32,000 nucleotides of DNA from Alphaproteobacteria bacterium (lineage in GTDB: Bacteria > Pseudomonadota > Alphaproteobacteria > Rs-D84). The notes under the pieces were generated by a model. That model did no database searches and was not told the origin of the DNA. It saw only the letters and a program-made list of their open reading frames with translations. This document shows, piece by piece, positions 1 to 22,095 of this stretch (the stretch's first letter is position 1; each line of letters opens with the position of its first letter). Both the position numbers and the translations under genes were made by a program. The stretch lies in assembly GCA_017475605.1 (NCBI GenBank), contig JAFVFD010000005.1, forward strand, positions 90,001-122,000, given 5' to 3'.

Positions 1-573
1 AACAGTATCCGGTGTGGCAACAATTTCTGTTTTCTGTTCCGGACATGGAGTTGGTTTCACCGGTGCCGACTTCGCTGGCTGCGCTGGTTTAACAGGTGCT
101 GGTTTTGCCGGTTTCACAGGCTGTGCTGGTTTTGCCGGTTTTGCAGGCTTTTTGGCTGGCTTGGCCGGCTTTTTAGCCTGTTTCGCTGGTTTTTCACATT
201 TGCAGCAATCACATTTGTTTTTCGCATCCTTGCAATCACAACCTGTCTTATTACCTTGGCATGCGCAAGCCTTGGCTTCACGACAAACCGCCAAAGAATC
301 ACGCAAATCTGCTATTGTGGAATCACGTACGACAATTGTATCGCGCAAAGCGGAATTTTCATCATTCAATTCACTAATGCGCCCATTTGCCGCTTCGACT
401 GCGTTGCTGGCATCTGTCAATGCTGTATTGTTCTTTGAAACAAGTGTATGCCATTCCTGTGCTTCATCACGTGCAGCACGTTTATCGCTGCACTGTTTAA
501 CACCGAAAACAATAGCGATAACCGCAACCGTTCCCAGTGCGATATTTGCCCAAGTTCTTTTATCCATAGCCAT
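1..573 (-). CDS. Partial membrane-anchored protein (3' end lies beyond the window edge). It has an N-terminal TM helix, a coiled-coil-like segment, a dense Cys cluster and a Pro/Ala/Lys repeat region.
   Basis: Absent from the ORF track because no stop codon lies in the window. Reading the reverse complement from ATG 573..571 gives MAMDKRTWANIALGTVAVIAIVFGVKQCSDKRAARDEAQEWH...CREAKACACQGNKTGCDCKDAKNKCDCCKCEKPAKQAKKPAKPAKKPAKPAKPAQPVKPAKPAPVKP..., open for 191 codons down to position 1. An AAAGGGA Shine-Dalgarno-like motif (revcomp of 580..586) lies 6 nt upstream. A TTGACA-17-TATATT promoter lies further upstream. Confidence 0.6.
   Translation of the reverse strand, partial: MAMDKRTWANIALGTVAVIAIVFGVKQCSDKRAARDEAQEWHTLVSKNNTALTDASNAVEAANGRISELNDENSALRDTIVVRDSTIADLRDSLAVCREAKACACQGNKTGCDCKDAKNKCDCCKCEKPAKQAKKPAKPAKKPAKPAKPAQPVKPAKPAPVKPAQPAKSAPVKPTPCPEQKTEIVATPDTV
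96..141. repeat. 19-nt perfect direct repeat gtgctggttttgccggttt (96..114 and 123..141, 27-nt period) inside the PAK-repeat coding region
   Basis: Read directly from the sequence. On the minus strand it encodes successive KPAKPA units. Confidence 0.8.
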
Positions 574-605
574 TTTTTATCCCTTTGGTTATACTTGATG
601 ACTAA

Positions 606-719: not shown

Positions 720-1580
720 ATGATAAAAAAACTTGCTTTTGTAATACTATCTTGTGCGCTGGTGCCTGTGGTTGGGCATTCGGCGTGTTCACGCGCGAAT
801 TTAACACGTTGTTTGGATTCTGCGTGTGCGGTTAACATATCGTCAAATCCGGCGGCACGTTGTCAATATTGTGGTACTGCGGATGCCGGCGAACCGAACG
901 ACGCGGGGTTGCGTGCCGTATCCGTTGGAACATCTGCGAAATACAATATTTCGGCGCGCGATTTGAAAAGCGCCCCAACCGATCCCGGCGAACGCTATGT
1001 TTGGGCATCAAAAAAATGTATTTCTATTGTTGATGGCTGTACCGCGGACGATGTGTCGGATGTGTACGATAAATTAATTGAACAATCTTGTACCGCCGCG
1101 GGAATAAGTGCACAAATGGCCGTACTATTCGAAAATGCGCGCAAGGTTAAGACAGAATCTGCATGTAAATCTGAAATAACGGCGTGTATGGTTGGCGAAG
1201 CAAAATGTACTTCTAAATACAGCGGCTGTGCCGAAGATGCCGATTTTGATAAATATTTTTCGGAATGTTCCATCGCATCTGTTGGTTGTGATGCGTATTT
1301 GTCGGACATCCGTTCAACACTTGCCACCGCACGCGATCGCGCAATTAAAAACGCCGAGGAAACACTTTTGGCCATTGTCCAATCGTACAGGGATGCGCGT
1401 GCAAAACGTTTGGCTGCAATTACCAAATCGTGCGATGATAACTCTGCGCGCGACGCGTGTATAACATCTGTATGTAACCGCAGTATGCCGAACAAGTGCG
1501 ATGCGGCATATCCATCTGAAAAATCTATGGCAACACAGTTGTGCAAGTTTTATGACATAGCGTGTTCGACATTAAAATAA
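720..1580 (+). CDS. Secreted cysteine-rich protein, small member of the Cys-module family (about 20 Cys in the mature chain by my count)
   Basis: The track ORF 663..1580 starts at a TTG. The first ATG (720) gives a classic signal peptide, MIKKLAFVILSCALVPVVGHS. Cys modules: CSRANLTRCLDSACAVNISSNPAARCQYC (786..875) and CKSEITACMVGEAKCTSKYSGC (1164..1229). A helical Arg/Ala-rich stretch precedes further Cys pairs. Confidence 0.75.
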   Translation: MIKKLAFVILSCALVPVVGHSACSRANLTRCLDSACAVNISSNPAARCQYCGTADAGEPNDAGLRAVSVGTSAKYNISARDLKSAPTDPGERYVWASKKCISIVDGCTADDVSDVYDKLIEQSCTAAGISAQMAVLFENARKVKTESACKSEITACMVGEAKCTSKYSGCAEDADFDKYFSECSIASVGCDAYLSDIRSTLATARDRAIKNAEETLLAIVQSYRDARAKRLAAITKSCDDNSARDACITSVCNRSMPNKCDAAYPSEKSMATQLCKFYDIACSTLK

Positions 1581-1587
1581 ACGGAAT

Positions 1588-3624
1588 ATGTTGAAAATGA
1601 ATACGAACAGAACCGGAATCTTTGGCAGAAAAATTTGTAGTGTGGCCTTTATTATTTTGGCGGTCGTTGCCGATGCGTCGGCTGCAAATGTGGTCCAGCG
1701 AAATACGGTATCTTCAACAAATCGGGTTTCGGCCACACGTCCATCCGCCGCGGCATCTCGTATGCCAACAATGATGGTTAATGTTGGCGCAACATCACAA
1801 AGCACAACACCGGCAGTATCGGACACACCCGCCACGACAACAACGAAAACCACAACTACAAACACCCCGGAACCAACACCAAACATTGAAAACAAATCAT
1901 CACAATTTGGTACGGGCCTTACATCTAAATCAGAAACCCAGATTGACACCGCGGCAACAAACCTGGCTGAATTGGTCCGCGCACAACGTGCTGCACTGGA
2001 TGCGGCGGATGCGACCGCGGCAATAACTGCGGCGGCACAAACCGTTACAATCAACGGGGAAAACTCCTGTGATACCGCGTTGCGTGAATGTATGATTGGC
2101 AAATGTGGTTCTAATTTTGCAAAATGCGTTTCCGATACAGATACTACATTTTTCGATAAAATGGACACATGCCGTCGCACAACGAATTGTACCGGCCATG
2201 AATATCAATTGTTTTCCGTTGAAATCAAGGCCGATCGTGATTTAAACGCAATGCTGGCAAATTATAACGCGACAATCGATTGCGGTAATAATTACGATTC
2301 TTGTATTATCGCACAGTGTGGGGCTAATTATTCCAAATGTATTGGTAAAAGTGCCGGCGACACCGCAATTGCAAAATGCGAATCAATCGCGAAATCATGT
2401 ATTGAACGCGATTCCGGTTTGGCAATGCGAACAATGGGTGTATTTGGCGAACTACGCCAGGATGCCGAACGCCAGATAGCAACCGACGAACAAAAATTGT
2501 ATGCCCTGCGGGATAGAATGCGCACCCTTTGTACGCGTTTGGGTGCAATGTTTGACGAACGCAGTTTGGATTGTGTTTATACGGTTAATTTTTATGCTGG
2601 CAAGGACAACACGCTTTTCGCATCCAAAAAATTATATGCTGGTTCAACATTTGATTGCACACAAAATTGGTTCGGTATTGATGTAACAACATACCGCGAA
2701 AACGCACTCCGCGAAACACGCGCACAAACCGCGGCATCATCTGCGATGCTGGGGTCCGGTCTGGGCCAGGCCGTTGGTGCATTCACATCGGGCGCAATTG
2801 GTCGTGCCGTTGACCGGTTCCGCGCCGACAATGCCCTGGAAGATAAAATCAATGAATGTATGGAAACCCACAACATGACGGAATCAGAATGTCGCGCCAA
2901 GATTAGTCCATCATCTGAAAAAACGGACAAGACGGGAAATGCCAGCGAAACATTAAAGGCCGCCAAAGCACAATTTGATGATATTAAGAACAAGTTGGGT
3001 ACAGACGGTGAAGGAAGTTTTTCAACGGGCACTGTTTCATCTGCGGCCACAGCGGCAGCCGGTGCTGCAACATCCCAAGAAGATGGTTCGACTAAAGAAG
3101 AAGTTGTTGAAGAACAACCTGAAGACGAAGAGGTTTCAATGTCCACCCCAGATAATATAGACAAACCAGTAATCGACAAGAAACAAACAGATGACGTGTA
3201 TGATGTTAATTTGCCAACCTCTTTATCAACTGAACCAATAGCTATCATCAACGGAAAACTTAAGGTAAATGTTGACAATAAGTACGCAGATGCCATTAGA
3301 AACTTTGTGAAAGACGAACGCTGGAAAGGTTCTGAAAAGAAACCACAGATATATAAAAATGTCCCCAACCAAACAATAGAGATAAGTTTATATAATAAGG
3401 CCTGGACTATAAACAAAGACTTGCATGACAAATGGTTGAAAACTACAAAAGTCGATTCAAACAATTATCCTAATGATGAAATGTTTTCAGTTTGTTCAAC
3501 ACTAGAAAGCCAGTATTGTAATGGTTTAGACAACTGTGGCATAAGTTATGTCGGTCGTCATAGTGGCACAGAAGCCAACTATTACTATGGTTGCTACATC
3601 TCTGTGCCATACAGCGAACAATAA
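1588..3624 (+). CDS. Secreted cysteine-rich protein of the Cys-module family, with a Thr/Pro linker, a glycine-zipper-like segment, an acidic linker and an AT-rich C-terminal domain of unknown function
   Basis: Signal peptide ...ICSVAFIILAVVADASA; the start could be 1588 or the ATG at 1597. Modules: CDTALRECMIGKCGSNFAKC (2068..2127) and CGNNYDSCIIAQCGANYSKC (2281..2340). Gly-rich segment MLGSGLGQAVGAFTSGAIGRAV (about 2734..2812). The start lies 7 nt after the upstream stop. Confidence 0.8.
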   Translation: MLKMNTNRTGIFGRKICSVAFIILAVVADASAANVVQRNTVSSTNRVSATRPSAAASRMPTMMVNVGATSQSTTPAVSDTPATTTTKTTTTNTPEPTPNIENKSSQFGTGLTSKSETQIDTAATNLAELVRAQRAALDAADATAAITAAAQTVTINGENSCDTALRECMIGKCGSNFAKCVSDTDTTFFDKMDTCRRTTNCTGHEYQLFSVEIKADRDLNAMLANYNATIDCGNNYDSCIIAQCGANYSKCIGKSAGDTAIAKCESIAKSCIERDSGLAMRTMGVFGELRQDAERQIATDEQKLYALRDRMRTLCTRLGAMFDERSLDCVYTVNFYAGKDNTLFASKKLYAGSTFDCTQNWFGIDVTTYRENALRETRAQTAASSAMLGSGLGQAVGAFTSGAIGRAVDRFRADNALEDKINECMETHNMTESECRAKISPSSEKTDKTGNASETLKAAKAQFDDIKNKLGTDGEGSFSTGTVSSAATAAAGAATSQEDGSTKEEVVEEQPEDEEVSMSTPDNIDKPVIDKKQTDDVYDVNLPTSLSTEPIAIINGKLKVNVDNKYADAIRNFVKDERWKGSEKKPQIYKNVPNQTIEISLYNKAWTINKDLHDKWLKTTKVDSNNYPNDEMFSVCSTLESQYCNGLDNCGISYVGRHSGTEANYYYGCYISVPYSEQ

Positions 3625-3652: not shown

Positions 3653-6600
3653 ATGAAAAAATTATTGATTGCTTTTTTATTTATCGTATCTGTAATACCG
3701 GCGGCATTTTCCGCACAGTCTGATGTGTATTCATGTGGTATTGCGTCATCCGCTTCTGCACCGAATATAGTTCCCGCAGACAATTGTATTCCCCAGGATA
3801 TTTTACGGGACTATCGTGTTATCAAGGGAACCGTTGTCAAGGCAAAAACAGATTCCAGGGAAAAGGTCGAACTTGTTTCCATACGTTTTACCCCGAAAGA
3901 TAAATCTCAATCAAAAGAATTAATGTTCATCGCCAGCCCACATTTCGCATTTTATATCAAGAAAGGTATAGATGGTGATATTTCTTTTACTGCCGATGGA
4001 TATCAAACACTTATATTACACCCACGTGATTTTGATGAAACCATGGGACGTTATGTTGAAATGGTACCCCAAAGTGCAGCCCCAACCACTACAGCACATG
4101 CTGTTGAAAGTCCAACAACACCAACATCTACCCCTGAAGCAAATAAAGCTGCAACCAGCACAACGCGCACACGTGCATCTACGCGTTCAGGTTCTACGCC
4201 ACCAACAAATGGCGGTTCTGCCACTACCGCAACAGTACATAAAAAAATTAACGGCAAGATTATCGAAGGTGACACAAAATTACCCGCTATTGGCGCATAC
4301 GTTACCCCACGTGGTGTCAAATCGTCCCCGTCTAATTCGGGTATAGCCGATGAAACAGGTGCTTTTCATATTGAAATGTTCCCTGCAAACACCGACGCAG
4401 AGGTGTCGTATATGGGGTACACAACAAGAATAGTTTCCGCATCACAAATGAATGATGGGATGAATATTACACTTCAGCCATCTACAGAAACTTTGGACAA
4501 GGCGGTCCTTTCCATTGTTGATTGTGGCAAAGAAAAGCGTGCAGAATTACACGCACTTACAGCCGAAGTATTAAACAACACAACGTGTATTCCAACATCT
4601 TGTGAAAATGGTTATATTTTGGAAAAACCTAAAAACATTGATGCAAAATGTACATCTTGTACAGGTCGTGTTCCCCTGGCCCGCACAGTAACAGTTGAAA
4701 ACAACCAATGTGTTCCTGACAGATGCGAAACAAACCTGGTACGCGTTGGCAATCAATGCTTGGTCGATTGTGATAAATTCAAATCTAAATTAAATGCCAA
4801 GACGGTAACACGAAAGACCCCCGGGCCAACAACTATTGCCCCAAACAATGACTATTCTTCATTTTGTAACATAGAAAGTTGTATAAACCATTCTTTCAAA
4901 AAAATTGATAATCAGTGTGTCTTACAAACAGACAAAGAATGTGATGATGTCGCCAAAAACATTAAATATGCATCGCCAAAAGGTAAATATATATACGATC
5001 GCAAGACCGATACTCTTATCTGCATTCCGGACTCTTGTACAGCAACGGGATATGTTGTTAATAAGACTACTGGTCAATGCGAATTAAAAGATAACAATTG
5101 CCCTGCTGAAATCTTGGAAAAGATGGATCCAAATGCATCGGCGGGCAGTATAAAAGAACGTGACCCCATCACAGGTGTTGCCAAAACATGCGAAATTACA
5201 GGGTGTAATAATTCCATGACCCCTAATTCCAACGGCACCAAATGCGTCAATTCGCAATGTGGCTGCGGTCAAACTTGGGATTCAACAAAAGATGAATGTG
5301 TGTCAAAAACCGAAAGAACATGCAGTGTAAAAAATGTAAAACACGCAAAGCCGTCTGGAAAATTACAATGCCAAAACACAACAAGCATGGCATTGTCTGA
5401 CGCATGCGACAAGAATACTAGTTGTAAAGAAATCTGTGCTGTTACAGAATGTGAAGACGATTACAAATTAAACCAACAAAACAATTCTTGTGATGTTCCA
5501 ACCGGTGAATGCGATTTTACTGGCGACAAACAATTCGCCAAAGACAAAGGTATTTGGAAAGAAAAATCAGGTGTGTTGGTTTGTGAACCCATCTGTAATG
5601 GCACAAACTATGAACTTGACTGGAACCCCCAAGAAAAGAAGTATAACGGTTGCAAAGTTAAATATTGTCCATGTGGTTCAATCTTGGATGACTCGACAAA
5701 GTCTTGTAAAACATGGGCCGAACTTGGTAAATCTAACTGCGACCCGATGCCGACTGGCGCAACAGCGGCCACCCGCAGTTGTCGCGATAATTCCAGTGGT
5801 GTCGAAACCACCAACTGTGCCGACGGTACATGTACAGAATTCTGTAAGATAACCGCGTGTGATACGGCCGCCGGATATATATTAAAGGATGGCACATGTG
5901 AATCTCAGGTTGGCAAACCATGTACCGCCGAGCAATTGCCAGAAAACGCGGTGGCGGGAACACAACGCGAAAACAATGGCAAGATAGAATGTGTTATCAG
6001 CAAATGCGCCAACGGATTTGAGGTTCGCCCTGATGAATTGTCCTGTGCACCCAAAATGGTATTAAGTCCGGAACAATACCAAGATGAAATCGCCGAACTG
6101 GCCGACAACGCACAAAAAATGCATGAACGTGAAACATCGTTGGAAAATCGTATATTGGGCGCGGCGGGAATTGGCGCAACGGGTATTGGTGGTACAATGA
6201 TTGGCGGCGCATTGGCCGAACGTCGTGCGGACGATGATGCGGAACGCGCAATGCGTGCATATCTGGAAACATTCCATTGCGATTATGGTAATGGTACGAA
6301 TGTAAAGGGTGGCGAAACAAATGTCGAATTACCGGGCGGTAACGATATGATTGGCCTTTACACCGAATACGCACAACTTGCCAATGATTTAAAGATTCGC
6401 AAGGAAGCCCTGGGCCTTCGTCCCGGCATTGAATCCGAGGTTGTTATTGACAAGGCCGAAACAGGTTTATACGAATACAGCAATAACGGTATTACCGGTG
6501 GAACGTACGCATCTATCGCACGTGCCCTGCTGAACCCAGACGGCGAAGATGCAAAGATGTGGGCCGCGCAACGCGCCGCCACCGACAGCAAATTAAAAAC

Positions 6601-7642
6601 AGGTGCAATTGTCGCCGGTGTTGGTACGGTGGGTTCCCTGGTCGGCAACATCGCAATCAATCATGGCAAGGGAAATAATGCAAAAGAGATTATAGCAAGA
6701 TATGAAAAATTACGCGCACCACTTGCCGTGGCCGCTGAACATGCCAACACACCGTATACCCCGGGTGATAATTCGCTTGATTGTTCTAGATTTACCGGAA
6801 CCACAGGTGTTGGTAAATCACCAAACTGCGTATGCGCAGACCCAACAAACACAAGATTTAACTATGACCGTGGTGGTTGTGTTCCATGCGAAAGCAACAA
6901 GGTATATAATCAAAACGACGAATGTGTGTGCCCAAGTGCAACACCACGTTGGAACGATGCGACAAATCGTTGCGAGTCAGAACCAACCGTTTGTCCATTG
7001 GCAAATAAATTAAAACACGCCACAAAATGTGAATGTGTTGAAAACGCAAGTGCGCCAGACGGCAAAAATTGCCAATGCAAAACAGACGAAGGTTTCGAAG
7101 AAAAAGACGGTCAATGCGTTCAGAAAGAAGTACCACCAGAACACGAATCTGGATCAGAAATTGGAAAATTCTCGTTCTCGGCAGATGCCCTTTTCGCGTC
7201 AAGTCGCTGGGAAATCAAATCTGACAAGCTTACTCAACTGCGCAGCGATTTGGCAAATGCAAAACAAACTGCGACAACCGAAAAAATTGATTTGAACGCG
7301 GACGATTATTGTGTCGTCGTCGTTGGAAAAACCGACCGCACACAATATCCTAAAAACAGTTCTATGAACAATACAAAACTGTCTTTGTATCGCGCAAATG
7401 CCATCAAAAACGAATTAAAAACTGTATTCAAAGAATCTAATATACTTACCTATGGCATCGCAGCGAAAGACTGTCCGAAAACAAAATATCCCAGGGCAAA
7501 TACCGCCGATTGCCGTCGTGTAGATGTTACTTGGTTGGCAGGATCATGCGAAGACAATAAAAATAATACAACAAATTGGATTAGCAATGTCGCAGAAGCA
7601 ACAGATGCTATATCAGAATTACAGAGTTTATTAAAAAAATAA
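3653..7642 (+). CDS. Giant mosaic envelope protein (1329 aa). Order: signal peptide, one or two CarboxypepD_reg-like beta-sandwich domains, at least 8 Cys repeats, two glycine-zipper-like segments, EGF-like Cys repeats, C-terminal OmpA_C-like domain.
   Basis: Signal peptide MKKLLIAFLFIVSVIPAAFSA. INGKIIEGDTKLPAIGAYV...DETGAFHIEMFPANTDAEVSYMGYTTRIV...NITLQPS (about 4241..4483) matches the CarboxypepD_reg pattern. Repeats of the form C-x3-4-C-x2-3-[GY]-x-[LV]-x4-7-C include CIPTSCENGYIL, CIPDSCTATGYVVNKTTGQC, CKITACDTAAGYILKDGTC and CVISKCANGFEVRPDELSC. ILGAAGIGATGIGGTMIGGALAERR lies at 6153..6220 and GAIVAGVGTVGSLVGNIAINHG at 6601..6666. CQCKTDEGFEEKDGQC is EGF-like. The C-terminus ...VVVVGKTDRTQ...NNTKLSLYRANAIKNEL...CRRVDVTW (about 7168..7540) fits OmpA_C (GhTD...N..LS..RA...RRV). 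Confidence 0.85.
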   Translation: MKKLLIAFLFIVSVIPAAFSAQSDVYSCGIASSASAPNIVPADNCIPQDILRDYRVIKGTVVKAKTDSREKVELVSIRFTPKDKSQSKELMFIASPHFAFYIKKGIDGDISFTADGYQTLILHPRDFDETMGRYVEMVPQSAAPTTTAHAVESPTTPTSTPEANKAATSTTRTRASTRSGSTPPTNGGSATTATVHKKINGKIIEGDTKLPAIGAYVTPRGVKSSPSNSGIADETGAFHIEMFPANTDAEVSYMGYTTRIVSASQMNDGMNITLQPSTETLDKAVLSIVDCGKEKRAELHALTAEVLNNTTCIPTSCENGYILEKPKNIDAKCTSCTGRVPLARTVTVENNQCVPDRCETNLVRVGNQCLVDCDKFKSKLNAKTVTRKTPGPTTIAPNNDYSSFCNIESCINHSFKKIDNQCVLQTDKECDDVAKNIKYASPKGKYIYDRKTDTLICIPDSCTATGYVVNKTTGQCELKDNNCPAEILEKMDPNASAGSIKERDPITGVAKTCEITGCNNSMTPNSNGTKCVNSQCGCGQTWDSTKDECVSKTERTCSVKNVKHAKPSGKLQCQNTTSMALSDACDKNTSCKEICAVTECEDDYKLNQQNNSCDVPTGECDFTGDKQFAKDKGIWKEKSGVLVCEPICNGTNYELDWNPQEKKYNGCKVKYCPCGSILDDSTKSCKTWAELGKSNCDPMPTGATAATRSCRDNSSGVETTNCADGTCTEFCKITACDTAAGYILKDGTCESQVGKPCTAEQLPENAVAGTQRENNGKIECVISKCANGFEVRPDELSCAPKMVLSPEQYQDEIAELADNAQKMHERETSLENRILGAAGIGATGIGGTMIGGALAERRADDDAERAMRAYLETFHCDYGNGTNVKGGETNVELPGGNDMIGLYTEYAQLANDLKIRKEALGLRPGIESEVVIDKAETGLYEYSNNGITGGTYASIARALLNPDGEDAKMWAAQRAATDSKLKTGAIVAGVGTVGSLVGNIAINHGKGNNAKEIIARYEKLRAPLAVAAEHANTPYTPGDNSLDCSRFTGTTGVGKSPNCVCADPTNTRFNYDRGGCVPCESNKVYNQNDECVCPSATPRWNDATNRCESEPTVCPLANKLKHATKCECVENASAPDGKNCQCKTDEGFEEKDGQCVQKEVPPEHESGSEIGKFSFSADALFASSRWEIKSDKLTQLRSDLANAKQTATTEKIDLNADDYCVVVVGKTDRTQYPKNSSMNNTKLSLYRANAIKNELKTVFKESNILTYGIAAKDCPKTKYPRANTADCRRVDVTWLAGSCEDNKNNTTNWISNVAEATDAISELQSLLKK

Positions 7643-7686: not shown

Positions 7687-8442
7687 TTATGGGTTGTAAT
7701 AACAACTGCTTGTAAATTGAAAATTACCAATATTATCGTGCAGTGTATAGTTCCCTGGTATATAACACTCATTTATGGCAGAGGCCCCTGCCCCTATTGT
7801 TGTTCCAACCGCTGCATCAGTGCCACTTGTTCCAGCATAAAATGTTGAAGATATCGGACATCGACTGCAAGAATTATTATTTAAATAATATCCTTGTACA
7901 CACACAAAATTCGGCCCACCTGGACAACCAGCATTATCAGGACACGCATTACACCGCGGGTCGTCCATTGAACTGGCTATTCCGTAATACCCAGATGCAC
8001 ATCTAAACTCTACTATTGTATTACATGTGCCACAAATACATGTTTTTCTTTGTCTCATTTGAATGTGATACGAATTAGCCGGTGTCCAGTCTGAATCGGA
8101 ACAATTTGTACAAGATGCCGAAGGGCACCCGCAGGTTTTATAAATATTCGTTGACGAATATTCACATCCATCATCTGTATAAGTTACATCCGTTAACACT
8201 TGACCTGTATTACATGATGTGCAACTTTGTACAGGACGAAAAGCCACGCTACCACTGCCATCGTAATTTGGATTAACAATAAAGTATATTGTTTCCGATG
8301 TTTTACAATTACTGCCAGTTATTATTGTTGAAAGTACATAAGAAGAATCGGGCCTGGTTTTTGTATTTGTACATGTTTGTCCATAAGCGTTAGTAAGTGT
8401 AACAAATATTATACTAGATGTGATTAAACAGTTCCTCTTCAT
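7687..8442 (-). CDS. Secreted cysteine-rich protein with ephrin-receptor-like / furin-like (GCC2_GCC3-type) repeats
   Basis: Signal peptide MKRNCLITSSIIFVTLTNAYG. Repeats: CASGYYGIASSMDDPRCNACPDNAGCPGGPNFVCVQGYYLNNNSCSRCPISSTFYAGTSGTDAA...INEC. This fits the C..GYY...C..CP pattern typical of eukaryotic-type Cys-rich repeats. RBS AAAGGGAAGGGGA lies upstream. The gene looks AT-rich relative to its neighbours by eye. Confidence 0.75.
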   Translation of the reverse strand: MKRNCLITSSIIFVTLTNAYGQTCTNTKTRPDSSYVLSTIITGSNCKTSETIYFIVNPNYDGSGSVAFRPVQSCTSCNTGQVLTDVTYTDDGCEYSSTNIYKTCGCPSASCTNCSDSDWTPANSYHIQMRQRKTCICGTCNTIVEFRCASGYYGIASSMDDPRCNACPDNAGCPGGPNFVCVQGYYLNNNSCSRCPISSTFYAGTSGTDAAVGTTIGAGASAINECYIPGNYTLHDNIGNFQFTSSCYYNP

Positions 8443-8901: not shown

Positions 8902-11900
8902 TTAGAATCTGTACGACCCAGACAATCTGAACTTGTGGAACTGAATATCGTTGTTATATTGATAACGATAATCAAGACCCATTTGGAATCCCTTGGCCGA
9001 CAACAATTCCACACCACCACCAATATTTGCCCACAATGGATCAATATCTACACTGTACTTGCTGTAAGTTTTCGCCGGACCAAACTTAAAGTTAATTGAA
9101 TCTGGAACCCCCAGGACATCATATTCGATTCCCGCCGATGCATATGGACGAACCTGGAACCAGGATGTTGGGTATATACGTTTTTGTACAATCAACGAAT
9201 AGCCCGGTGTGAATATCAGATAACCATCCGAATCCATTTGCATATAATCGGAACCTGCGGCCTTTTCTTTGACCGAGAAGCCAAAGTTATATCCAACACG
9301 CGCATACGCGTTACCGACCAGATATTGATTCAACCAATCATGTAACAGGCCCCATTCGGAAATCAAACTAAATGCCGTACCGGAACCACTTATGCTTGAA
9401 ACATAGTTCTGTTCACGCGAAATATCCAGCAAGTGTAAATCAAAGAACCCGTTTCCATACAGACGTGTTTTCGTACCCAAAATCTTCATCATGTATGCAC
9501 CCAAACCAATATTCGTGTCTGCAACATCAAAACTGACGCGGCCATTGATGGTTTCATTTGGTCTGTAACTTAAATCTATTGTATCAGCATCATCAGATGA
9601 CATGTGCGAAACATGGCCAACAAATCCCAAAAGTAATGTTGAAGAATGTTGCCAATCATAACCGCCCATTATGCTGAATCTGTCGCCGTTCGCATGTTTT
9701 CCATCATCTGTATTTTGATAGAATAAACCATAGTCAACATCAACCCATGCTTTTTTCAAACTGCGATGACGATTCCAAATAAATTCATCCAACATGTGAT
9801 CTTCGAAATCGCGGAATGTGGTATGTTCATTTAACACAACATCGCCCGCAACCAATTCTGCTTCACGTGGCTGGACCAGGCGACTAAACCGCGCCAATGC
9901 TGTACCATCCGGATTCAACACATATTGTTCCATACGGTTGTACAATTCATTTGCCAATTCTTCTAAATTAGTTCCGGCAAATGCTACTGGTATCGCCTCG
10001 ATTGGTGTAGTGTTATTAAACTTCTTATCCTTTAACCCACCCGCAATCATTTCGTCCAATGCGCCGGCGGCATCATGTTCACCATCGGTATGATTATCTA
10101 CACGATCCACAATTGGTTGAATTTTGAAGACTTCAACCGGACCACCAAAGCGGGAATCAAACACGATATAGATACTGTCGGTTACACCATCTTCGTCTAT
10201 ATCACGCACCGTCAGATATGCCGGTAATTGTGTTTGCGTTTGGTTCGCGTTTGCATTTTCAGCAATAGAATTGTCGAAATACTTGAAACACAAACTGCCA
10301 TCGGCATTACAGAAATTGACATTCAGGTTACGAATCTTGTTTGCCAATTCATCCAAGCCTTCACTGCTGGCGGAATGTAACAACCAAATGGCGGTACCAC
10401 TGTCCACCATATCGAATATATCAATTCCGATTTGTGGCGCGACCAATTCATCGCCCGACAATTCAGAACCAACATTCGTTGCCTTGTTGATAAAACGACC
10501 CGCAACAGAAATCAATGGTGCCGCATTACCATCTGTGGCATTTGTGATTTGACCCAATGTATTATCATCAGCCAATGATACCGTCGACCAATAATTGTAT
10601 GTTGTTGAATTAATTTCCACACCCGGATATCCTAAAATCGCGGCATGTATCATGCTGTTATTATCAAATGTATAATTACCGCCAACATCCATGTGTTCAA
10701 GGCCAACAAATTGTACCCCGCCAGAAACATTACCACCCACATCAACATCCAGCCAGTTATTTGCTGGATCCGCCTGGATACGCAAATTGGTTGCATCAAT
10801 ATTATTCGTAATCGCAACATCACTGCTTTTAATCGTCATTGAACCAGATTCCTGTTTGATTCCCTTGACGGTTAAATTAGATGTTGTTAATACATGATTG
10901 TCGGACATTATGTTAACATCGCCCGTTCCCAACCCAGATGTATAATTTTGACGCAACATTCCACCAATCGTAAACGCATTACCCAATGTCAAGGTATTTG
11001 CGGTTATTGTTGCCGTCCCAGTGTTATTTTTGAACGATGCGGCATTAACGGCACCTGATGTTGTCTTTAATGACAAAGTACCAGTATTTTCCACAACCCC
11101 CAATGACAAATCATCAGTTGTATTCAATGTCAACGTGCCCGCGTTTTTGGTCTTTGCGTTGTTCCCCGTTATCGCGACAGATTCCGCATTGATTATTGCC
11201 GTACCCGCTGCAACAACATCAATACCATTTGCAAATGTCGCATTATTTGTAATGTTATAAGTTACTGTATTGGCATTAACCAACAATGCACCACCTGAAA
11301 CATTCAAATTATCTGCCTTCAATGTGCCGCCATTATTCAAGACCAACACACCACCGGTTGTGCCACCCTGGCTCATATCGCCATTGGATACAGATATATC
11401 GCCATCAACATCTATCGCCCCAGATGCCAACTTGGTTGTTCCGCCCGACAATGTCATACTATCTGAATTAACAGATGCACCCGACAAAGTAACATCGCCC
11501 CCCGATACAACCACAGAATCTATGCCCAGCGCATTTGTTGCCGCCACCGTCGTTGTCCCGGCCGATGAATCCAACCCGGACATTGTTATGGCCTTGGCAT
11601 TTATATCCAATGTACCTTTGTTCGTTACAGTACCCGTATTAACCGAATCGGTGGTGTTCGTGGTTCCCAATGAAACCGTACCAGATGTCCCATTGTTAAT
11701 CGCCGCTGTTTTAACGGTTGTACCGGTTGCCGTAACCGTACCACCATTTGTTGTTGTTATTGCATCATTAAACTTAACCACATTAGATGCAGTAACATTT
11801 AACACACCATTCGCTGTATCTGCCACAATTGCACCACCCAACGTTGCATCGTTTCCGGACACAATATTCAATGTTCCATTTTTAATCGATGCACCACCAT

Positions 11901-14097
11901 CTACCAATACATCGCCGGTATTCGTTTTTAATGTAATTGCGGATGGGCCACTTATAACCACACCCTTGGTTTGACCGGTTGTACCGTCAAAGAATATTCC
12001 ATTATCAATATCAATGTCGCCACTTGTTGCGGTTACACCATTCCCATGCAGAAGGAACAATCCAGCCCCCGACAAAGATTTTAATGTTGTTGCACCAGAA
12101 TATATTTCAACCGTTCCACCATTGTTTGCCGTAACATCACCAGTAATATCTAATGTTGTTTGCGTTGTTGATGTTGGTGCGTTACCGAACGCAATATTCC
12201 CCTTGCCACCAACGGTTACATCGCCACCAACCTCTATTACATTGGCCGCCAATGTTCCAGTACGCGCCACAGACGAATCGGTTGCGGTAACATCACCATC
12301 AATATTTATTTGTCCAGTGGACGCAAGTGTAAATCTGTTAACACCACTGTTTGCAACATTAACATCGCCCGCCGCGGTTGCATTAGTTCCACTAAATGTT
12401 AAATTGCCATTGATTTGCGTTCCGCCACCAACAGTTAAATTATATGTATTCGCCCCAACGTTAAACGCACCCGTCGTTACCAAAAGGTCGTTAGTTATTG
12501 TTGCGCCACCAATCCGCGCATCCAGGTTTGTTACACCACCCTGGGCATCAATACCACCGATAACAACACTGGCCCCTGCCAAATCGGAGCCCTCGATTGT
12601 CGTTGTTCCTGCGGTTGTTAACACAACGCCATCAATTGCGATTTGACGCGCACTAACATCAGTTGTTCCACCGGAATTGCTAACCCCACCAGACAAATGA
12701 ATTTTTCCAGTCGGATCGGTTTGCGCCGCAACGGTCAAAACACCATTACCAGTATTGGATACACTGGTTAATTCTATGATATCGCCATTCAATGTCATCA
12801 CACCGGCATTAGATACCGCCCCGGTCGCGGTTAATGTGCCATCCGCAGAAACCGTCGTTTTTGACCCGGCGGCACCATAAATACTTGTCCCAGATGGTGT
12901 AGTAATTGTGATATTACCGGCGGTGTCTTCTATTGTAGAAACTGTTAATTGATAACCGCGGTTTTGAATTGTGTTGGCTGTTATGCCGCCGGCCCCCGCG
13001 GTCAAAGTCATATTTGCCGCCGCGTTTTCTGAACCGTTGGAAATATTGTTCGCAGCAATTGAACCGCCACTTACCACCAATTCAAAGTTTGTTAATTTAT
13101 TATTTTCAAAAACCTGGGACAGACTGTCTGCACCGCCACCCAAATTCAATGTACCTGTTTTAAGGCTGAAAGTATTGGTGGCCTCCATATCGCTTAAATC
13201 AAAACCATATGCCAAACTAGTTTCACCCGTAACAACAATTGATAAATTACCCTTGTTCACGAACGATGCCTGGGTCCCCGAACCACCATTAATTTCCAAT
13301 GAATCAACCGCAATATTCATGATACTGCCGGTGTTATCATTCTTCATTGTTCCATCAACAGTCATATCCGTACCGGTTATACGCATAAGGGTTCCACTGT
13401 TTTCGACACTGCCACTTGTTGTAATTTCATCACCCGATTCAACAAGCATAGAACCACTGTTGTTTTGGATATTACGCGCAGAAATACTGCCCGCTGTGAT
13501 TTGCGTTTCCGCATTACCATTTGCGATAAAATCGTTAGTAATCGCTAAACCATTTGTAACATTGATTGTTGTGTTTCCGGACACAGAATCAATCGTTCCG
13601 GTTATATTTGCGGCATTCGCGGTTATTTCAAGGTTATCCTTGCTGGTAATATTACCGGTATTAAGTGTACCGATATTTTCCATTACCAACCCACCATCCG
13701 CACTTATCGTACCAATATTAACAGACGAAATTGTTGTGCCCTGGGTTTTAGATTTAATCCCCAACGAATAACCAGACAAAACTTCTAATACACTTGTAAT
13801 AGAAACATTACCATCACTTGCAATTGTATACGGATTCAATGCGGTTGGTTCAACAAAAATCTGACCACTGGCAACCCCGGAACCAGCCTGTCCAACATAC
13901 AAATTACTTGCCGACAAACCGCCGGTTCCCAACGATAAACCGTTACCTGAAATAACACGCACAAAATTATCAGACGGCACCGCCAGCCCATCCATAACAT
14001 TTGAATTCGGGGCCGTCGCCGGATCAATAACAATCGGTTCCGCGACCGCCGCGCTAAACGGCACAACACATGACATAAATGCTAAAAATTTTTTCAT
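8902..14097 (-). CDS. Type Va autotransporter (1731 aa) with a long repetitive beta-helix-type passenger and a C-terminal beta-barrel translocator
   Basis: Signal peptide MKKFLAFMSCVVPFSAAVAEP. About 1200 aa are rich in Gly/Thr/Asn/Val with degenerate repeats (..GGTTxV, ..TxTGxxV..). The C-terminal ~280 aa show an alternating hydrophobic pattern and end in ...FRLSGSYRF, with the terminal aromatic typical of OMP barrels. Confidence 0.9.
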   Translation of the reverse strand: MKKFLAFMSCVVPFSAAVAEPIVIDPATAPNSNVMDGLAVPSDNFVRVISGNGLSLGTGGLSASNLYVGQAGSGVASGQIFVEPTALNPYTIASDGNVSITSVLEVLSGYSLGIKSKTQGTTISSVNIGTISADGGLVMENIGTLNTGNITSKDNLEITANAANITGTIDSVSGNTTINVTNGLAITNDFIANGNAETQITAGSISARNIQNNSGSMLVESGDEITTSGSVENSGTLMRITGTDMTVDGTMKNDNTGSIMNIAVDSLEINGGSGTQASFVNKGNLSIVVTGETSLAYGFDLSDMEATNTFSLKTGTLNLGGGADSLSQVFENNKLTNFELVVSGGSIAANNISNGSENAAANMTLTAGAGGITANTIQNRGYQLTVSTIEDTAGNITITTPSGTSIYGAAGSKTTVSADGTLTATGAVSNAGVMTLNGDIIELTSVSNTGNGVLTVAAQTDPTGKIHLSGGVSNSGGTTDVSARQIAIDGVVLTTAGTTTIEGSDLAGASVVIGGIDAQGGVTNLDARIGGATITNDLLVTTGAFNVGANTYNLTVGGGTQINGNLTFSGTNATAAGDVNVANSGVNRFTLASTGQINIDGDVTATDSSVARTGTLAANVIEVGGDVTVGGKGNIAFGNAPTSTTQTTLDITGDVTANNGGTVEIYSGATTLKSLSGAGLFLLHGNGVTATSGDIDIDNGIFFDGTTGQTKGVVISGPSAITLKTNTGDVLVDGGASIKNGTLNIVSGNDATLGGAIVADTANGVLNVTASNVVKFNDAITTTNGGTVTATGTTVKTAAINNGTSGTVSLGTTNTTDSVNTGTVTNKGTLDINAKAITMSGLDSSAGTTTVAATNALGIDSVVVSGGDVTLSGASVNSDSMTLSGGTTKLASGAIDVDGDISVSNGDMSQGGTTGGVLVLNNGGTLKADNLNVSGGALLVNANTVTYNITNNATFANGIDVVAAGTAIINAESVAITGNNAKTKNAGTLTLNTTDDLSLGVVENTGTLSLKTTSGAVNAASFKNNTGTATITANTLTLGNAFTIGGMLRQNYTSGLGTGDVNIMSDNHVLTTSNLTVKGIKQESGSMTIKSSDVAITNNIDATNLRIQADPANNWLDVDVGGNVSGGVQFVGLEHMDVGGNYTFDNNSMIHAAILGYPGVEINSTTYNYWSTVSLADDNTLGQITNATDGNAAPLISVAGRFINKATNVGSELSGDELVAPQIGIDIFDMVDSGTAIWLLHSASSEGLDELANKIRNLNVNFCNADGSLCFKYFDNSIAENANANQTQTQLPAYLTVRDIDEDGVTDSIYIVFDSRFGGPVEVFKIQPIVDRVDNHTDGEHDAAGALDEMIAGGLKDKKFNNTTPIEAIPVAFAGTNLEELANELYNRMEQYVLNPDGTALARFSRLVQPREAELVAGDVVLNEHTTFRDFEDHMLDEFIWNRHRSLKKAWVDVDYGLFYQNTDDGKHANGDRFSIMGGYDWQHSSTLLLGFVGHVSHMSSDDADTIDLSYRPNETINGRVSFDVADTNIGLGAYMMKILGTKTRLYGNGFFDLHLLDISREQNYVSSISGSGTAFSLISEWGLLHDWLNQYLVGNAYARVGYNFGFSVKEKAAGSDYMQMDSDGYLIFTPGYSLIVQKRIYPTSWFQVRPYASAGIEYDVLGVPDSINFKFGPAKTYSKYSVDIDPLWANIGGGVELLSAKGFQMGLDYRYQYNNDIQFHKFRLSGSYRF

Positions 14098-16045: not shown

Positions 16046-17602
16046 TTATTCGTCGCAACCGTATTCGCCACACGTGCCATCGGAATATTCGCCAACTTCT
16101 ATCGCGACAGGATTGCCTGCCGGCTCATTAGTTGTATAATGCGTTTCCTTGACTACGCGGACACGACGATTTGCCGCATTCGGTGTATTGTCTGGTGTCG
16201 GAACAGCCAAATCTTCTTCACCACTGGATACGGCGACAATCTGACTTGCCGGGATACCGTATTGAATCAGCATTTTCTGGACCGCTTCGGCACGACGACC
16301 CCCCAGGGCATAGTTGTAACTTTTTGACCCGGCGGTATCGGTATGTCCGACCACAGAAACCTTGATATTCTTGTTTGATTGTGTCGCATCGGCCAATTTT
16401 TCAATCAAATCACGATATTCAGGTTTAATAATCGCCTTGTTGAAATCAAAACGAACTTCAAAGACTTCTTCCATGACATGCTGTTTTGGTTCCAATGGAA
16501 TCTGTTGAACCTTAATCATTGTCTTTTCGCCAGCGGCCGCCTGTAATTTATCCAAACGTGCGTTAATTGCCGCCAATTCTTCACGCATAGCCATCATCAT
16601 ATCGATAAATTCTGCGCGGGTTACGACATCGTCATTTACGACTGGAACAACAACTGGTTCTGGGTCTGGACAATTACATGATTCCTGGACAACAGGTTCT
16701 GGTTGTGGGCATGGCTTAACCTTGCACACAGTTTTTGCGCATGTGCAGTTTGATCCGGCCTGTAAACTGTTACCATTGTTGGACATGTTTTTGCTGACTG
16801 TTTTATCACCACCATAAATGTTTTGATTAAATACCATTGGTTGTACAGGTACCGGGTTAATAAGGTGTTCCGGCACATTCACATTGTTAACAATAATAAC
16901 ACCTTCGCGGGCGCGAGACGAATTGCTCATTGCGCGCATATTGCGTGTTTCCGGGTAATATTCACCGGCACTGCGCTGAACATCATTAACTGCGATTTCT
17001 GTTTTAACTGTTTGTGTTGTCTGGGTCTGGACAGGTGTTTTTGCGATTACCTTGCCCCCCTTGCAATCACGCAGGGCAACCAAAGCCTTTTGGAAACGGT
17101 CGCGACATTGACGCGCGGTTGCTTCTTGGCCACTGGCGGTGGCGGACAACCAACAATCGTATTTAGCCTGAACTTCGGCCGCCAATTCAGGATGTAAATC
17201 GGATGCATCGTTTTTCAATTGTTCCATCAATTCATTGTATGCGGTATATAATTCAAACGATGTTTGTTCATCATCAACCGGCCAATTTTCCATTGTTTCC
17301 GGGAACGGCAATTCACCAGAAAATGCGGCAACCGCCTTCTGTGCGAACAATTCGCCCATTTCAGGATAGCCTGATGTACGCGCATTGTATATAGCATACG
17401 AACGATAGTTCATCGCCAATTGATTCAAAAAGGAATCTTTATGTGGTGCAGAATACACATCCAACCGTTCAACATAATCGACAGTTGGTGTTGAAACATC
17501 ATATGCGACATCGCCCGCATTATCACGCGCACACGCGCCCAATGCCAGTATCAACAGGCCTGTCAATATTTGTACTTTGCACTTTGAACTTTGATTTTTC
17601 AT
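16046..17602 (-). CDS. OmpA-family outer-membrane lipoprotein with a Cys/Pro-rich linker and a peptidoglycan-binding OmpA_C domain
   Basis: Signal peptide with lipobox ..LLILALGAC. OmpA_C: FDFNKAIIKPEY...VSVVGHTDTAGSKSYNYALGGRRAEAV...NRRVRVV. Linker: CTCAKTVCKVKPCPQPEPVVQESCNCPDPEPVV. RBS AGGAAAGGGGA. Confidence 0.9.
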   Translation of the reverse strand: MKNQSSKCKVQILTGLLILALGACARDNAGDVAYDVSTPTVDYVERLDVYSAPHKDSFLNQLAMNYRSYAIYNARTSGYPEMGELFAQKAVAAFSGELPFPETMENWPVDDEQTSFELYTAYNELMEQLKNDASDLHPELAAEVQAKYDCWLSATASGQEATARQCRDRFQKALVALRDCKGGKVIAKTPVQTQTTQTVKTEIAVNDVQRSAGEYYPETRNMRAMSNSSRAREGVIIVNNVNVPEHLINPVPVQPMVFNQNIYGGDKTVSKNMSNNGNSLQAGSNCTCAKTVCKVKPCPQPEPVVQESCNCPDPEPVVVPVVNDDVVTRAEFIDMMMAMREELAAINARLDKLQAAAGEKTMIKVQQIPLEPKQHVMEEVFEVRFDFNKAIIKPEYRDLIEKLADATQSNKNIKVSVVGHTDTAGSKSYNYALGGRRAEAVQKMLIQYGIPASQIVAVSSGEEDLAVPTPDNTPNAANRRVRVVKETHYTTNEPAGNPVAIEVGEYSDGTCGEYGCDE

Positions 17603-21993: not shown

Positions 21994-22095
21994 AGAAAAT
22001 CCCCCCATGATAGTTGTTCTAATTATACCATAAAAAAGCCTTAAAAAAAGTTTTTTTACCGTAATTTTTGCTTTTTATTGAAAAAACTTAAAACA

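Follow-up and report, generated by a model that had tools for sequence, protein, structure and literature searches.

A large unnamed family of predicted envelope proteins from uncultured gut Alphaproteobacteria, defined by a double glycine-zipper core

Background

How a single protein comes to unite elements that normally occur in different protein classes, and where in the cell such a protein might work, are the questions raised by a gene on the forward strand of contig JAFVFD010000005.1 (GenBank assembly GCA_017475605.1). The gene was studied within a stretch of 32,000 nucleotides (contig positions 90,001 to 122,000), which as a whole is referred to as the window, and occupies window positions 3653..7642 (+). 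The initial annotation of its 1329-residue product had been read from the letters and translations, and depicted an unusual mosaic of CarboxypepD_reg-type beta-sandwiches, Cys-rich repeats, two glycine-rich segments, EGF-like C-x-C repeats and an OmpA_C domain, with shifts in base composition taken as a sign of domain fusion. Here, we combine homology searches, structure predictions and a comparison of loci, by which the protein is placed in a large unnamed family of envelope proteins of uncultured gut Alphaproteobacteria, with a conserved core between a Cys-rich stalk and a domain predicted to bind the cell wall. We know of no characterised protein that unites these parts. The novelty may rest in the core domain, which had not been described before, and in the light it may shed on the surface of a gut lineage with reduced genomes.

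All core matches that carry a name or source label are from gut metagenome-assembled genomes (MAGs) labelled Alphaproteobacteria, including one labelled Candidatus Enterousia. Candidatus Enterousia belongs to the order Rs-D84, a group of uncultured gut Alphaproteobacteria with genomes below ~1 Mb, without respiratory chains, most biosynthetic pathways and standard transporters, and with a suspected dependence on partner cells (PMC12306168). The window probably belongs to this order as well, judging by the labels of the relatives and by its 696-kb contig. In the literature on Enterousia and Rs-D84, we found no paper with a title or abstract on this protein family.

The core domain and its family

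The core (residues ~800-1030) is by far the best-conserved segment of the protein, with 52-65% identity between relatives as compared to ~25-35% in the stalk ahead of it. The glycine-zipper stretch, to which little weight had been given, is hence the most conserved and family-defining part. A search with the full-length protein gave one match and a search with a second long query gave two, the low-complexity linker and the repeats having probably crowded the word index, and the core alone was used as the query instead. This gave 177 proteins in the word-indexed database, and a core profile matched 886 clusters at 50% identity in a library of 1.84 billion proteins, 743 of them at E<1e-30. In the first core alignment, the core studied here shares 38-61% identity with the other 76 sequences, and it has all motifs of the family, namely ExSxxNxxLG, AYLxTFxCxYG, GGExxxELPGGN, PGIESE and GLYD, together with both Gly-rich helices.

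The two Gly-rich segments were recognised correctly in the initial annotation: both are uncharged and conserved across the family, and each has one strict GxxxG (G847xxxG851 and G994xxxG998) in addition to small-xxx-small ladders, such as G839-T843-G847-G851-A855. Positions G844, G846 and G847 of zipper 1 are kept in at least 80-90% of the members. The domain between the zippers has on average 13.9 Lys and Arg vs 21.5 Asp and Glu residues and 1.0 Cys per sequence. Two AlphaFold models concur on the layout of the core, with a mean predicted local distance difference test score (pLDDT) of 70, and place a coiled-coil-like helix, a 44-residue helix, a beta-hairpin, 3-4 short helices, a 39-residue helix and a final helix in this order. 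Zipper 1 makes up the first half of the 44-residue helix and zipper 2 the second half of the 39-residue helix, so that in both models the zippers lie at the distal helix ends and the proximal halves adjoin the globular insert. The insert was modelled with a pLDDT of 75-91 and the zipper helices with ~50-55, at a predicted template modelling score (pTM) of 0.37-0.46.

No described domain was found to cover the core. The segment itself and eight stand-alone relatives had no significant match in Pfam, and the core had none in NCBIfam, where an Lpp-like match was not significant (E 0.11). The profile of the core alignment had no match at E<=1 among PDB sequences, where the full protein gave noise only, and was also unrelated to the upstream operon proteins. 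A Foldseek search of the core model against PDB and BFVD returned nothing significant (best E 1.1 and 0.17). A reading of the core as a toxin or pore-former was rejected, as the colicin and Tc-toxin helices among the Foldseek matches are non-significant generic helices. On the strength of the alignments, the core is a conserved domain without an earlier name, which also occurs alone and fused to other exported domains.

The range of these architectures is wide. Stand-alone cores of ~250 residues follow a signal peptide in P0054, P0058, P0065 and P0084, whereas other members have one beta-sandwich and then the core (P0100-P0104), Cys-rich regions and then the core without OmpA (L009), or the core directly before OmpA_C (L008, P0053). 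In P0246 and P0193, a trypsin-like serine protease precedes the core (Pfam Trypsin E 4e-13 and 3e-10), which suggests that the core may anchor enzymes as well as stalks. The core is also found N-terminally in proteins of 1400-1800 residues with C-termini of unknown kind. In the members examined, recognisable exported domains of passenger type stand N-terminal of the core and the CxC/OmpA_C part C-terminal of it. The simplest reading of these arrangements is that the core would be a general module for envelope anchoring or oligomerisation.

The full architecture, consisting of signal peptide, beta-sandwich, Cys modules, core, CxC modules and OmpA_C, recurs in P0001, P0122, P0123 and P0233 and in six MAG loci (L001, L003-L007), all of which are 36-43% identical to the protein overall. 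OmpA is present in 35 and CarbopepD_reg_2 in 29 of the 46 long relatives that were sampled. The picture of a one-off mosaic was therefore abandoned, as the same architecture is present in at least ten orthologues and in most of the 46 long relatives.

Two further observations concern the family. The stand-alone cores P0085 and P0090, on contigs of 191 kb and 267 kb, apparently have no signal peptide and end in a Lys/Arg-rich tail, which would mean either mis-called starts or an opposite topology and bears on localisation. At least two core genes per genome were seen in MAGs SC0372_S2_6 (L005 and L008) and RGIG896 (L010 and L011) in a scan with two short peptide patterns, and the true count of core paralogues per genome is probably higher.

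Domains on either side of the core

The protein starts with a signal-peptide-like leader. Residues 1-21 hold its most hydrophobic 19-residue window (Kyte-Doolittle hydropathy, KD, 2.22), and an N-terminal hydrophobic leader is likewise present in 214 of 251 family members that start with Met (85%). The leader ends in ...PAAFSA/QSD and has no lipobox Cys, with no Cys at all before position 28.

The beta-sandwich placed near 4241..4483 by the initial annotation is upheld through its relatives. The domain itself reaches 24.3 bits with Pfam PF13715 (E 3.3e-5, model positions 1-87 of 88), which is under the cut-off of 32.2 bits, while the orthologues score 38.8-60.6 bits and thus above it. A jackhmmer profile seeded on the L006 domain (59.8 bits in Pfam) matches residues 198-286 with 69.8 bits (E 8e-21). 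A second CarboxypepD_reg-like beta-sandwich at residues ~57-126 is a plausible candidate: it is kept in the closest orthologue P0233 only, with 41% identity over the N-terminal domain, and its alignment to the family beta-sandwich profile is weak (hhalign probability 15%, P 0.0018), with IxGTV and GY motifs aligned. The corresponding region of P0233 scores just 5 bits with the same profile.

The stalk is dominated by cysteine. Of the 69 Cys in the protein, 48 fall within residues 286-800, where a module with the consensus CIITECKDGYKPNDDGNKCV occurs in six copies at E<0.01 according to a family-derived profile and in ~5 further degenerate copies read by eye off the Cys map. The initial count of at least eight repeat copies is thus fair under a relaxed pattern. 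With its 3-4 Cys, the module looks like an EGF domain reduced to its C-terminal half. No EGF-type Pfam match was found in the protein at a limit of E 10, and the six-Cys EGF pattern (1-3, 2-4, 5-6) was absent. Among the 46 long relatives, seven gave CPL1-like matches (best E 1.5e-9) and two gave cEGF matches (best E 3.8e-9). The number of Cys ahead of the core is 28 in P0001 (L001) and 30 in L003 vs 50 in the protein studied here, P0233 lacks one complete Cys unit, and indels between relatives comprise whole modules. These alignments show that the N-terminal stalk, read as a beta-sandwich followed by ~11 half-EGF-like modules, evolves far more rapidly than the core and varies in length in units of whole modules.

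Behind the core, the C-x-C repeats at 6830..7125 were confirmed as five modules with 14 Cys, while their description as EGF-like found no backing in an EGF profile match or the six-Cys pattern; the region has a weak cEGF match in one orthologue. The modules are conserved in the orthologues, their Cys are invariant between the protein and P0001, and AlphaFold models them as short beta-hairpins (pLDDT 71-89).

The C-terminal domain is divergent. It reaches 15.2 bits with Pfam PF00691 in the whole protein and 19.1 bits as an isolated segment, short of the cut-off of 27.2, while scores of 33.5-59.3 bits were obtained for P0001 and for each of the seven relatives from the loci whose sequence extends to the C-terminus. 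NCBIfam TIGR03350 (TssL-type OmpA domain) matches it at E 1.1e-7. The family C-terminal alignment matches YiaD_C, MotB_C and the canonical OmpA of the window in hhalign at 98.3% probability (E 1.5e-14, 108 columns). Profile-profile comparison was needed here, since the OmpA region gave no match to YiaD or to the OmpA lipoprotein of the window in pairwise BLASTP. In this alignment, the TD, RA and RRV motifs of YiaD have their counterparts in D1228 (GKTD), R1247 (LSLYRA) and R1288-R1289 (RRV). In OmpA and Pal structures, the conserved Asp and Arg of OmpA_C contact the diaminopimelate of the peptide stem. The model of the domain has a pLDDT mostly of ~80-94 with two dips near 60, and its top 50 Foldseek matches in PDB are all of OmpA_C type (best 5nhx, E 3e-6, template modelling score 0.76). 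By profile and fold, the domain is a divergent OmpA_C that retains the Asp and Arg used elsewhere for peptidoglycan binding. Both the beta-sandwich and the OmpA_C domain, which was expected at 7168..7540, are in this way borne out by homology and the latter also by fold, despite Pfam scores below the cut-offs. The C-terminal tail that follows is not present in P0001, which stops just past its last Cys.

Integrity and composition of the gene

The reading frame is intact and begins with ATG, 28 nt downstream of the stop of the preceding gene. NCBI holds the identical protein as MBR2286276.1 ("hypothetical protein IJ866_02375"), from a 695,807-bp contig of a MAG labelled Alphaproteobacteria bacterium, and a second, independent source is the Logan assembly of run SRR12529321, so that the protein is identical in three contigs from two kinds of assembly. 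An assembly chimera, which the initial annotation had left open, is therefore very unlikely.

A recent fusion of compositionally distinct pieces, or a chimera, would be suggested by the climb in GC content from 0.39 in the first half of the Cys repeats to 0.50 in the core, a contrast that had been noted by eye and is real but modest. The rise is mainly at first codon positions (0.60 in the core vs 0.42), where it is explained by the Gly, Ala, Asp and Glu content, and it recurs over the core in the orthologues L001 and L003. At third codon positions (GC3), the gene has a GC of 0.32-0.44, which we place within the spread of the neighbouring genes (0.25-0.42). Both the architecture and the operon position are kept in relatives that are just 36-43% identical. 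Further, the gene has no internal direct DNA repeats of >=18 nt except three chance-level pairs, and no junction signatures. On these grounds, a recent mosaic or chimeric origin appears hardly credible, and while the domain inventory of the initial annotation was essentially right, its composition boundaries do not mark a fusion in view of architecture, operon and codon positions. A recent tandem duplication of the Cys modules was rejected on the same repeat count, and the lack of DNA-level repeats implies that the modules are old. No paralogue of the protein was found among the open reading frames (ORFs) of the window.

Localisation and possible mechanism

With a probability of roughly 0.5, we consider the protein to be a Sec-exported, disulfide-rich and modular envelope protein, with its OmpA_C domain on the peptidoglycan, its zippers as a hairpin in or at the outer membrane and a fast-evolving stalk; localisation and function are deduced from the predicted parts. 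Following Sec export, the two glycine-zipper helices would pack as a hairpin that holds the protein in or at the outer membrane, OmpA_C would bind peptidoglycan non-covalently, and the rigid, disulfide-stapled stalk would act as a spacer or as an arm for binding. In this manner, the protein would connect the outer membrane with the wall, offer a variable surface for binding, or both, and its partners would probably be the two Cys-rich secreted proteins whose genes lie directly upstream.

The hydrophobicity of the zippers is the main ground for this placement. As a Hessa value, we used the simple sum of insertion free energies over the best 19-residue window. Zipper 1 has a sum of +4.24 and zipper 2 one of +3.85, at a family median of ~+5.1. 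SlyB (+4.42) and YiaD (+4.24/+4.35) have similar sums, in contrast to the inner-membrane anchors MotB (-0.41) and Tar (-4.05/-1.3), and Sec export followed by outer-membrane association is favoured because the zippers match the former and not the latter. SlyB, OsmB, YiaD and YfgH are outer-membrane lipoproteins with a 2TM glycine-zipper domain, to which YiaD adds OmpA_C, and the zipper helices of SlyB, YfgH and OsmB sit in the outer membrane and oligomerise (bioRxiv 10.64898/2025.12.22.696046). With SlyB, YfgH and OsmB, the protein shares predicted export and Gly-rich, marginally hydrophobic helices, but it has no detectable homology to them, no lipid anchor and a different domain context. In YiaD, the glycine-zipper helices are likewise N-terminal to a homologous OmpA_C (the above 98.3% in hhalign) and have the same hydrophobicity. 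However, YiaD has 219 residues, is lipidated and has its zippers ~10 residues apart, whereas the protein has a conserved domain of 127 residues between the zippers, an 800-residue stalk, five CxC modules and no lipobox. No similarity was found outside OmpA_C, and the NCBIfam YiaD model matched residues 1215-1292 only (E 0.043). The protein was thus not found to belong to the known glycine-zipper families, and the resemblance may point to a possible way of working.

Several observations weigh against an outer-membrane hairpin. The confidence of the AlphaFold models is lowest exactly at the zipper helices. No Pfam glycine-zipper model (PF05433, PF13488, PF13436, PF13441) matched the core or the eight stand-alone relatives at a limit of E 10, with HMMER filters dropping most matches above ~0.1, and the core profile gave 1.1 bits on SlyB and -2.3 on YiaD, so that homology to the outer-membrane zipper lipoproteins was not detected. 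The leader is without lipobox, and between the zippers a conserved folded domain takes the place of a tight turn. In addition, a hairpin would put the stalk and OmpA_C on one side of the membrane, which would make the ~800-residue stalk periplasmic and fits poorly with an adhesin role; because of this, a surface-exposed stalk would need a different, oligomeric arrangement. The charges flanking the zippers give no clear topology signal in a positive-inside analysis. Lastly, the lone conserved Cys of the insert would be expected of a cytoplasmic domain, as the exported parts pair their Cys.

The last point would also suit a hairpin in the inner membrane, in which the zippers would be true transmembrane helices, the stalk and the CxC/OmpA_C part periplasmic and the acidic insert cytoplasmic, giving a link to peptidoglycan like that of MotB or long-form TssL. 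The order of leader, periplasmic N-terminus, first helix, loop, second helix and periplasmic C-terminus agrees with Sec insertion, both helices are uncharged and 21-22 residues long, and the other 68 Cys are all in the segments that would be periplasmic, leaving one unpaired conserved Cys in the insert. As in this reading of the protein, MotB and long-form TssL have one or more membrane helices followed by a periplasmic OmpA_C, the Foldseek matches include MotB, TagL and TssL domains, and among the NCBIfam models it is long-form TssL, which is located in the inner membrane, that best matches the OmpA domain. That match is limited to the generic OmpA_C part, however, and MotB and TssL differ by a single, strongly hydrophobic transmembrane helix and by having no signal peptide and no N-terminal exported stalk. 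The zippers are only marginally hydrophobic for autonomous insertion (+3.9 and +4.2), unlike MotB and Tar and similar to zippers of outer-membrane lipoproteins that pass through Sec, and the flank after zipper 1 is acidic (1.6 Lys and Arg vs 4.5 Asp and Glu), contrary to the positive-inside rule. No flagellar or type VI secretion genes were seen near the gene. Overall, we regard the inner-membrane placement as unlikely.

The low confidence of the zippers in monomer models would also be expected of an oligomer interface, and the Gly/Ala-rich helices could form the packed core of a homo-oligomeric bundle in a soluble periplasmic scaffold, that is, a peptidoglycan-bound strut without contact to a membrane. 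In line with this, the core is predicted to be nearly all-helical with a coiled-coil-like helix ahead, and its sole fold matches are generic long helical bundles. A precedent for the outer domains is PorE (PG1058) of the type IX secretion system of Porphyromonas gingivalis, a periplasmic, outer-membrane-associated protein with carboxypeptidase-regulatory-like and OmpA_C-like domains (PMC12773672, PMC7192894); both the regulatory-like and the peptidoglycan-binding domain are shared with our protein, and both are periplasmic in PorE (PMC7192894). It is the characterised protein known to us in which these two domains are combined. Unlike our protein, PorE is a lipoprotein from Bacteroidota that contains TPR and WD40 domains and is without Cys-rich modules and glycine-zipper core, and no type IX secretion genes were seen in the window. 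Uncharged segments of 21-22 residues with charged flanks are found more typically in helices embedded in lipid, a purely internal strut would hardly explain how rapidly the stalk diverges and turns over its modules, and the weak Lpp-like match is not significant. A membrane-free scaffold is therefore rather improbable in our assessment.

A bolder form of the outer-membrane placement, to which we give little credence at present, is that the core would be a new, oligomeric and membrane-spanning alpha-helical outer-membrane anchor, displaying variable EGF-like stalks, proteases and other passengers while tying the outer membrane to peptidoglycan in gut Alphaproteobacteria of the Rs-D84 or Candidatus Enterousia type, which have reduced genomes and probably depend on partners. 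If this were true, the family and its Cys-rich operon partners would be the main cell-contact apparatus of the lineage and would represent a route of surface display independent of beta-barrels.

The 4 kb spent on one gene in so small a genome and the 886 clusters of varied architecture suggest that the protein is central to the envelope or to contact between cells. With a definition of the core domain, hundreds of "hypothetical proteins" from gut metagenomes could be annotated, and the domain could serve as a handle, for example as antibody or tag targets or marker genes, on the attachment and feeding of these uncultured bacteria. To our knowledge, Alphaproteobacteria are without Braun's lipoprotein, hence the interest of other links between outer membrane and peptidoglycan. 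The core family would lengthen the short list of such links that are neither lipoproteins nor beta-barrels.

Operon and genomic neighbourhood

In all six full-length loci (L001, L003-L007), the orthologue is the third gene of the same three-gene operon (Table 1). The first two genes encode proteins of ~290 and 430-680 residues across genomes, both secreted and Cys-rich. Orthologues of the first gene are 55-59% identical and at the same position, and those of the second are 52-56% identical and lie directly upstream in 6/6 loci, so that both are better conserved (52-59%) than the third protein (36-39%). The first two proteins have a weak profile similarity to one another (hhalign 61%, E 8e-5). 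The second (1588..3624) also has a Gly-rich segment, AMLGSGLGQAVGAFTSGAIG.

Table 1. Parts of the 1329-residue protein and its operon, in positions of the window.
Feature	Position	Strand	Evidence and remarks
First operon gene, 286-aa secreted protein, 7.3% Cys	720..1580	+	N-terminal hydrophobic leader, Cys count; no Pfam match
Second operon gene, 678-aa secreted Cys-rich protein, variable C-terminal extension	1588..3624	+	Orthologues upstream of orthologues of the third gene
Sec-type signal peptide, aa 1-21, MKKLLIAFLFIVSVIPAAFSA	3653..3715	+	Cleavage site inferred from sequence; without lipobox Cys
N-terminal domain, aa 22-135, possible degenerate second CarboxypepD_reg-like beta-sandwich	3716..4057	+	Seen elsewhere only in P0233
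Pro/Thr/Ser-rich low-complexity linker, aa 136-196	4058..4240	+	Read from translation; GC at second codon positions (GC2) 0.76, GC3 0.23
CarboxypepD_reg-like beta-sandwich, about aa 197-286	4241..4510	+	Pfam PF13715 below cut-off; family profile; orthologues
Array of ~11 Cys-rich half-EGF-like modules, aa 291-798, 48 Cys	4523..6046	+	Cys map, family module profile
Family-defining core, aa 799-1030: coiled-coil helix, zipper helix 1, acidic alpha/beta insert, zipper helix 2, helix	6047..6742	+	Homology searches, AlphaFold
Glycine-zipper helix 1, aa 834-855, ILGAAGIGATGIGGTMIGGALA	6152..6217	+	KD 1.29, summed Hessa free energy +4.24
Inter-zipper domain, aa 856-982, net acidic, near-invariant Cys876	6218..6598	+	Conservation table, charge counts, pLDDT 75-91
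Glycine-zipper helix 2, aa 983-1004, TGAIVAGVGTVGSLVGNIAINH	6599..6664	+	KD 1.71, Hessa +3.85; family-wide conservation
Five C-x-C...aromatic...C modules, aa 1044-1155, 14 Cys, loosely EGF-like	6782..7117	+	Cys map
Divergent OmpA_C-like, predicted peptidoglycan-binding domain, aa 1173-1299, four own Cys	7169..7549	+	NCBIfam, hhalign, Foldseek
C-terminal helical tail, aa 1300-1329, and stop codon	7550..7642	+	Predicted helix, model residues 510-539

The remaining window is ordinary bacterial chromosome, including enolase, LptC, LptB, RpoA and a canonical OmpA lipoprotein. Promoter and terminator scans of the window gave nothing above the shuffled expectation, and no tRNA genes were found in it. 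An ORF for 194 residues at 14..598 (+) is probably spurious; the gene called at this place in Logan contig L002 is on the (-) strand, encodes 266 residues and extends beyond the left edge of the window.

The window is unusually rich in Cys-rich proteins that have a signal peptide and no Pfam match, and the number of exported Cys-rich proteins, at least six within 32 kb, suggests a heavily disulfide-bonded envelope. Directly downstream, 7687..8442 (-) encodes 251 residues with a signal peptide, 8.8% Cys and no Pfam match, whose C..GYY..C..C motifs recall furin-like or variant-surface-protein-like repeats and which has paralogue-like relatives (~30-34% identity) in L004, L006 and L008. It is followed at 8902..14097 (-) by a protein of 1731 residues with a signal peptide and three Cys, which matched nothing in Pfam or NCBIfam and had no relative among the fetched loci. 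The other large exported proteins of the window gave no cross-matches when compared with each other. Two of the large proteins, 19897..22008 (-) and 23240..26200 (-), have hydrophobic N-terminal leaders, ~4% Cys and no Pfam match. Their counterparts in L003 and L004 share 55-63% identity with them and keep their relative order. Finally, 16046..17602 (-) encodes the canonical OmpA-family lipoprotein, with the lipobox LALGAC and a Pfam OmpA match at E 3.4e-19, and the organism therefore has a standard OmpA_C protein beside the divergent one described here.

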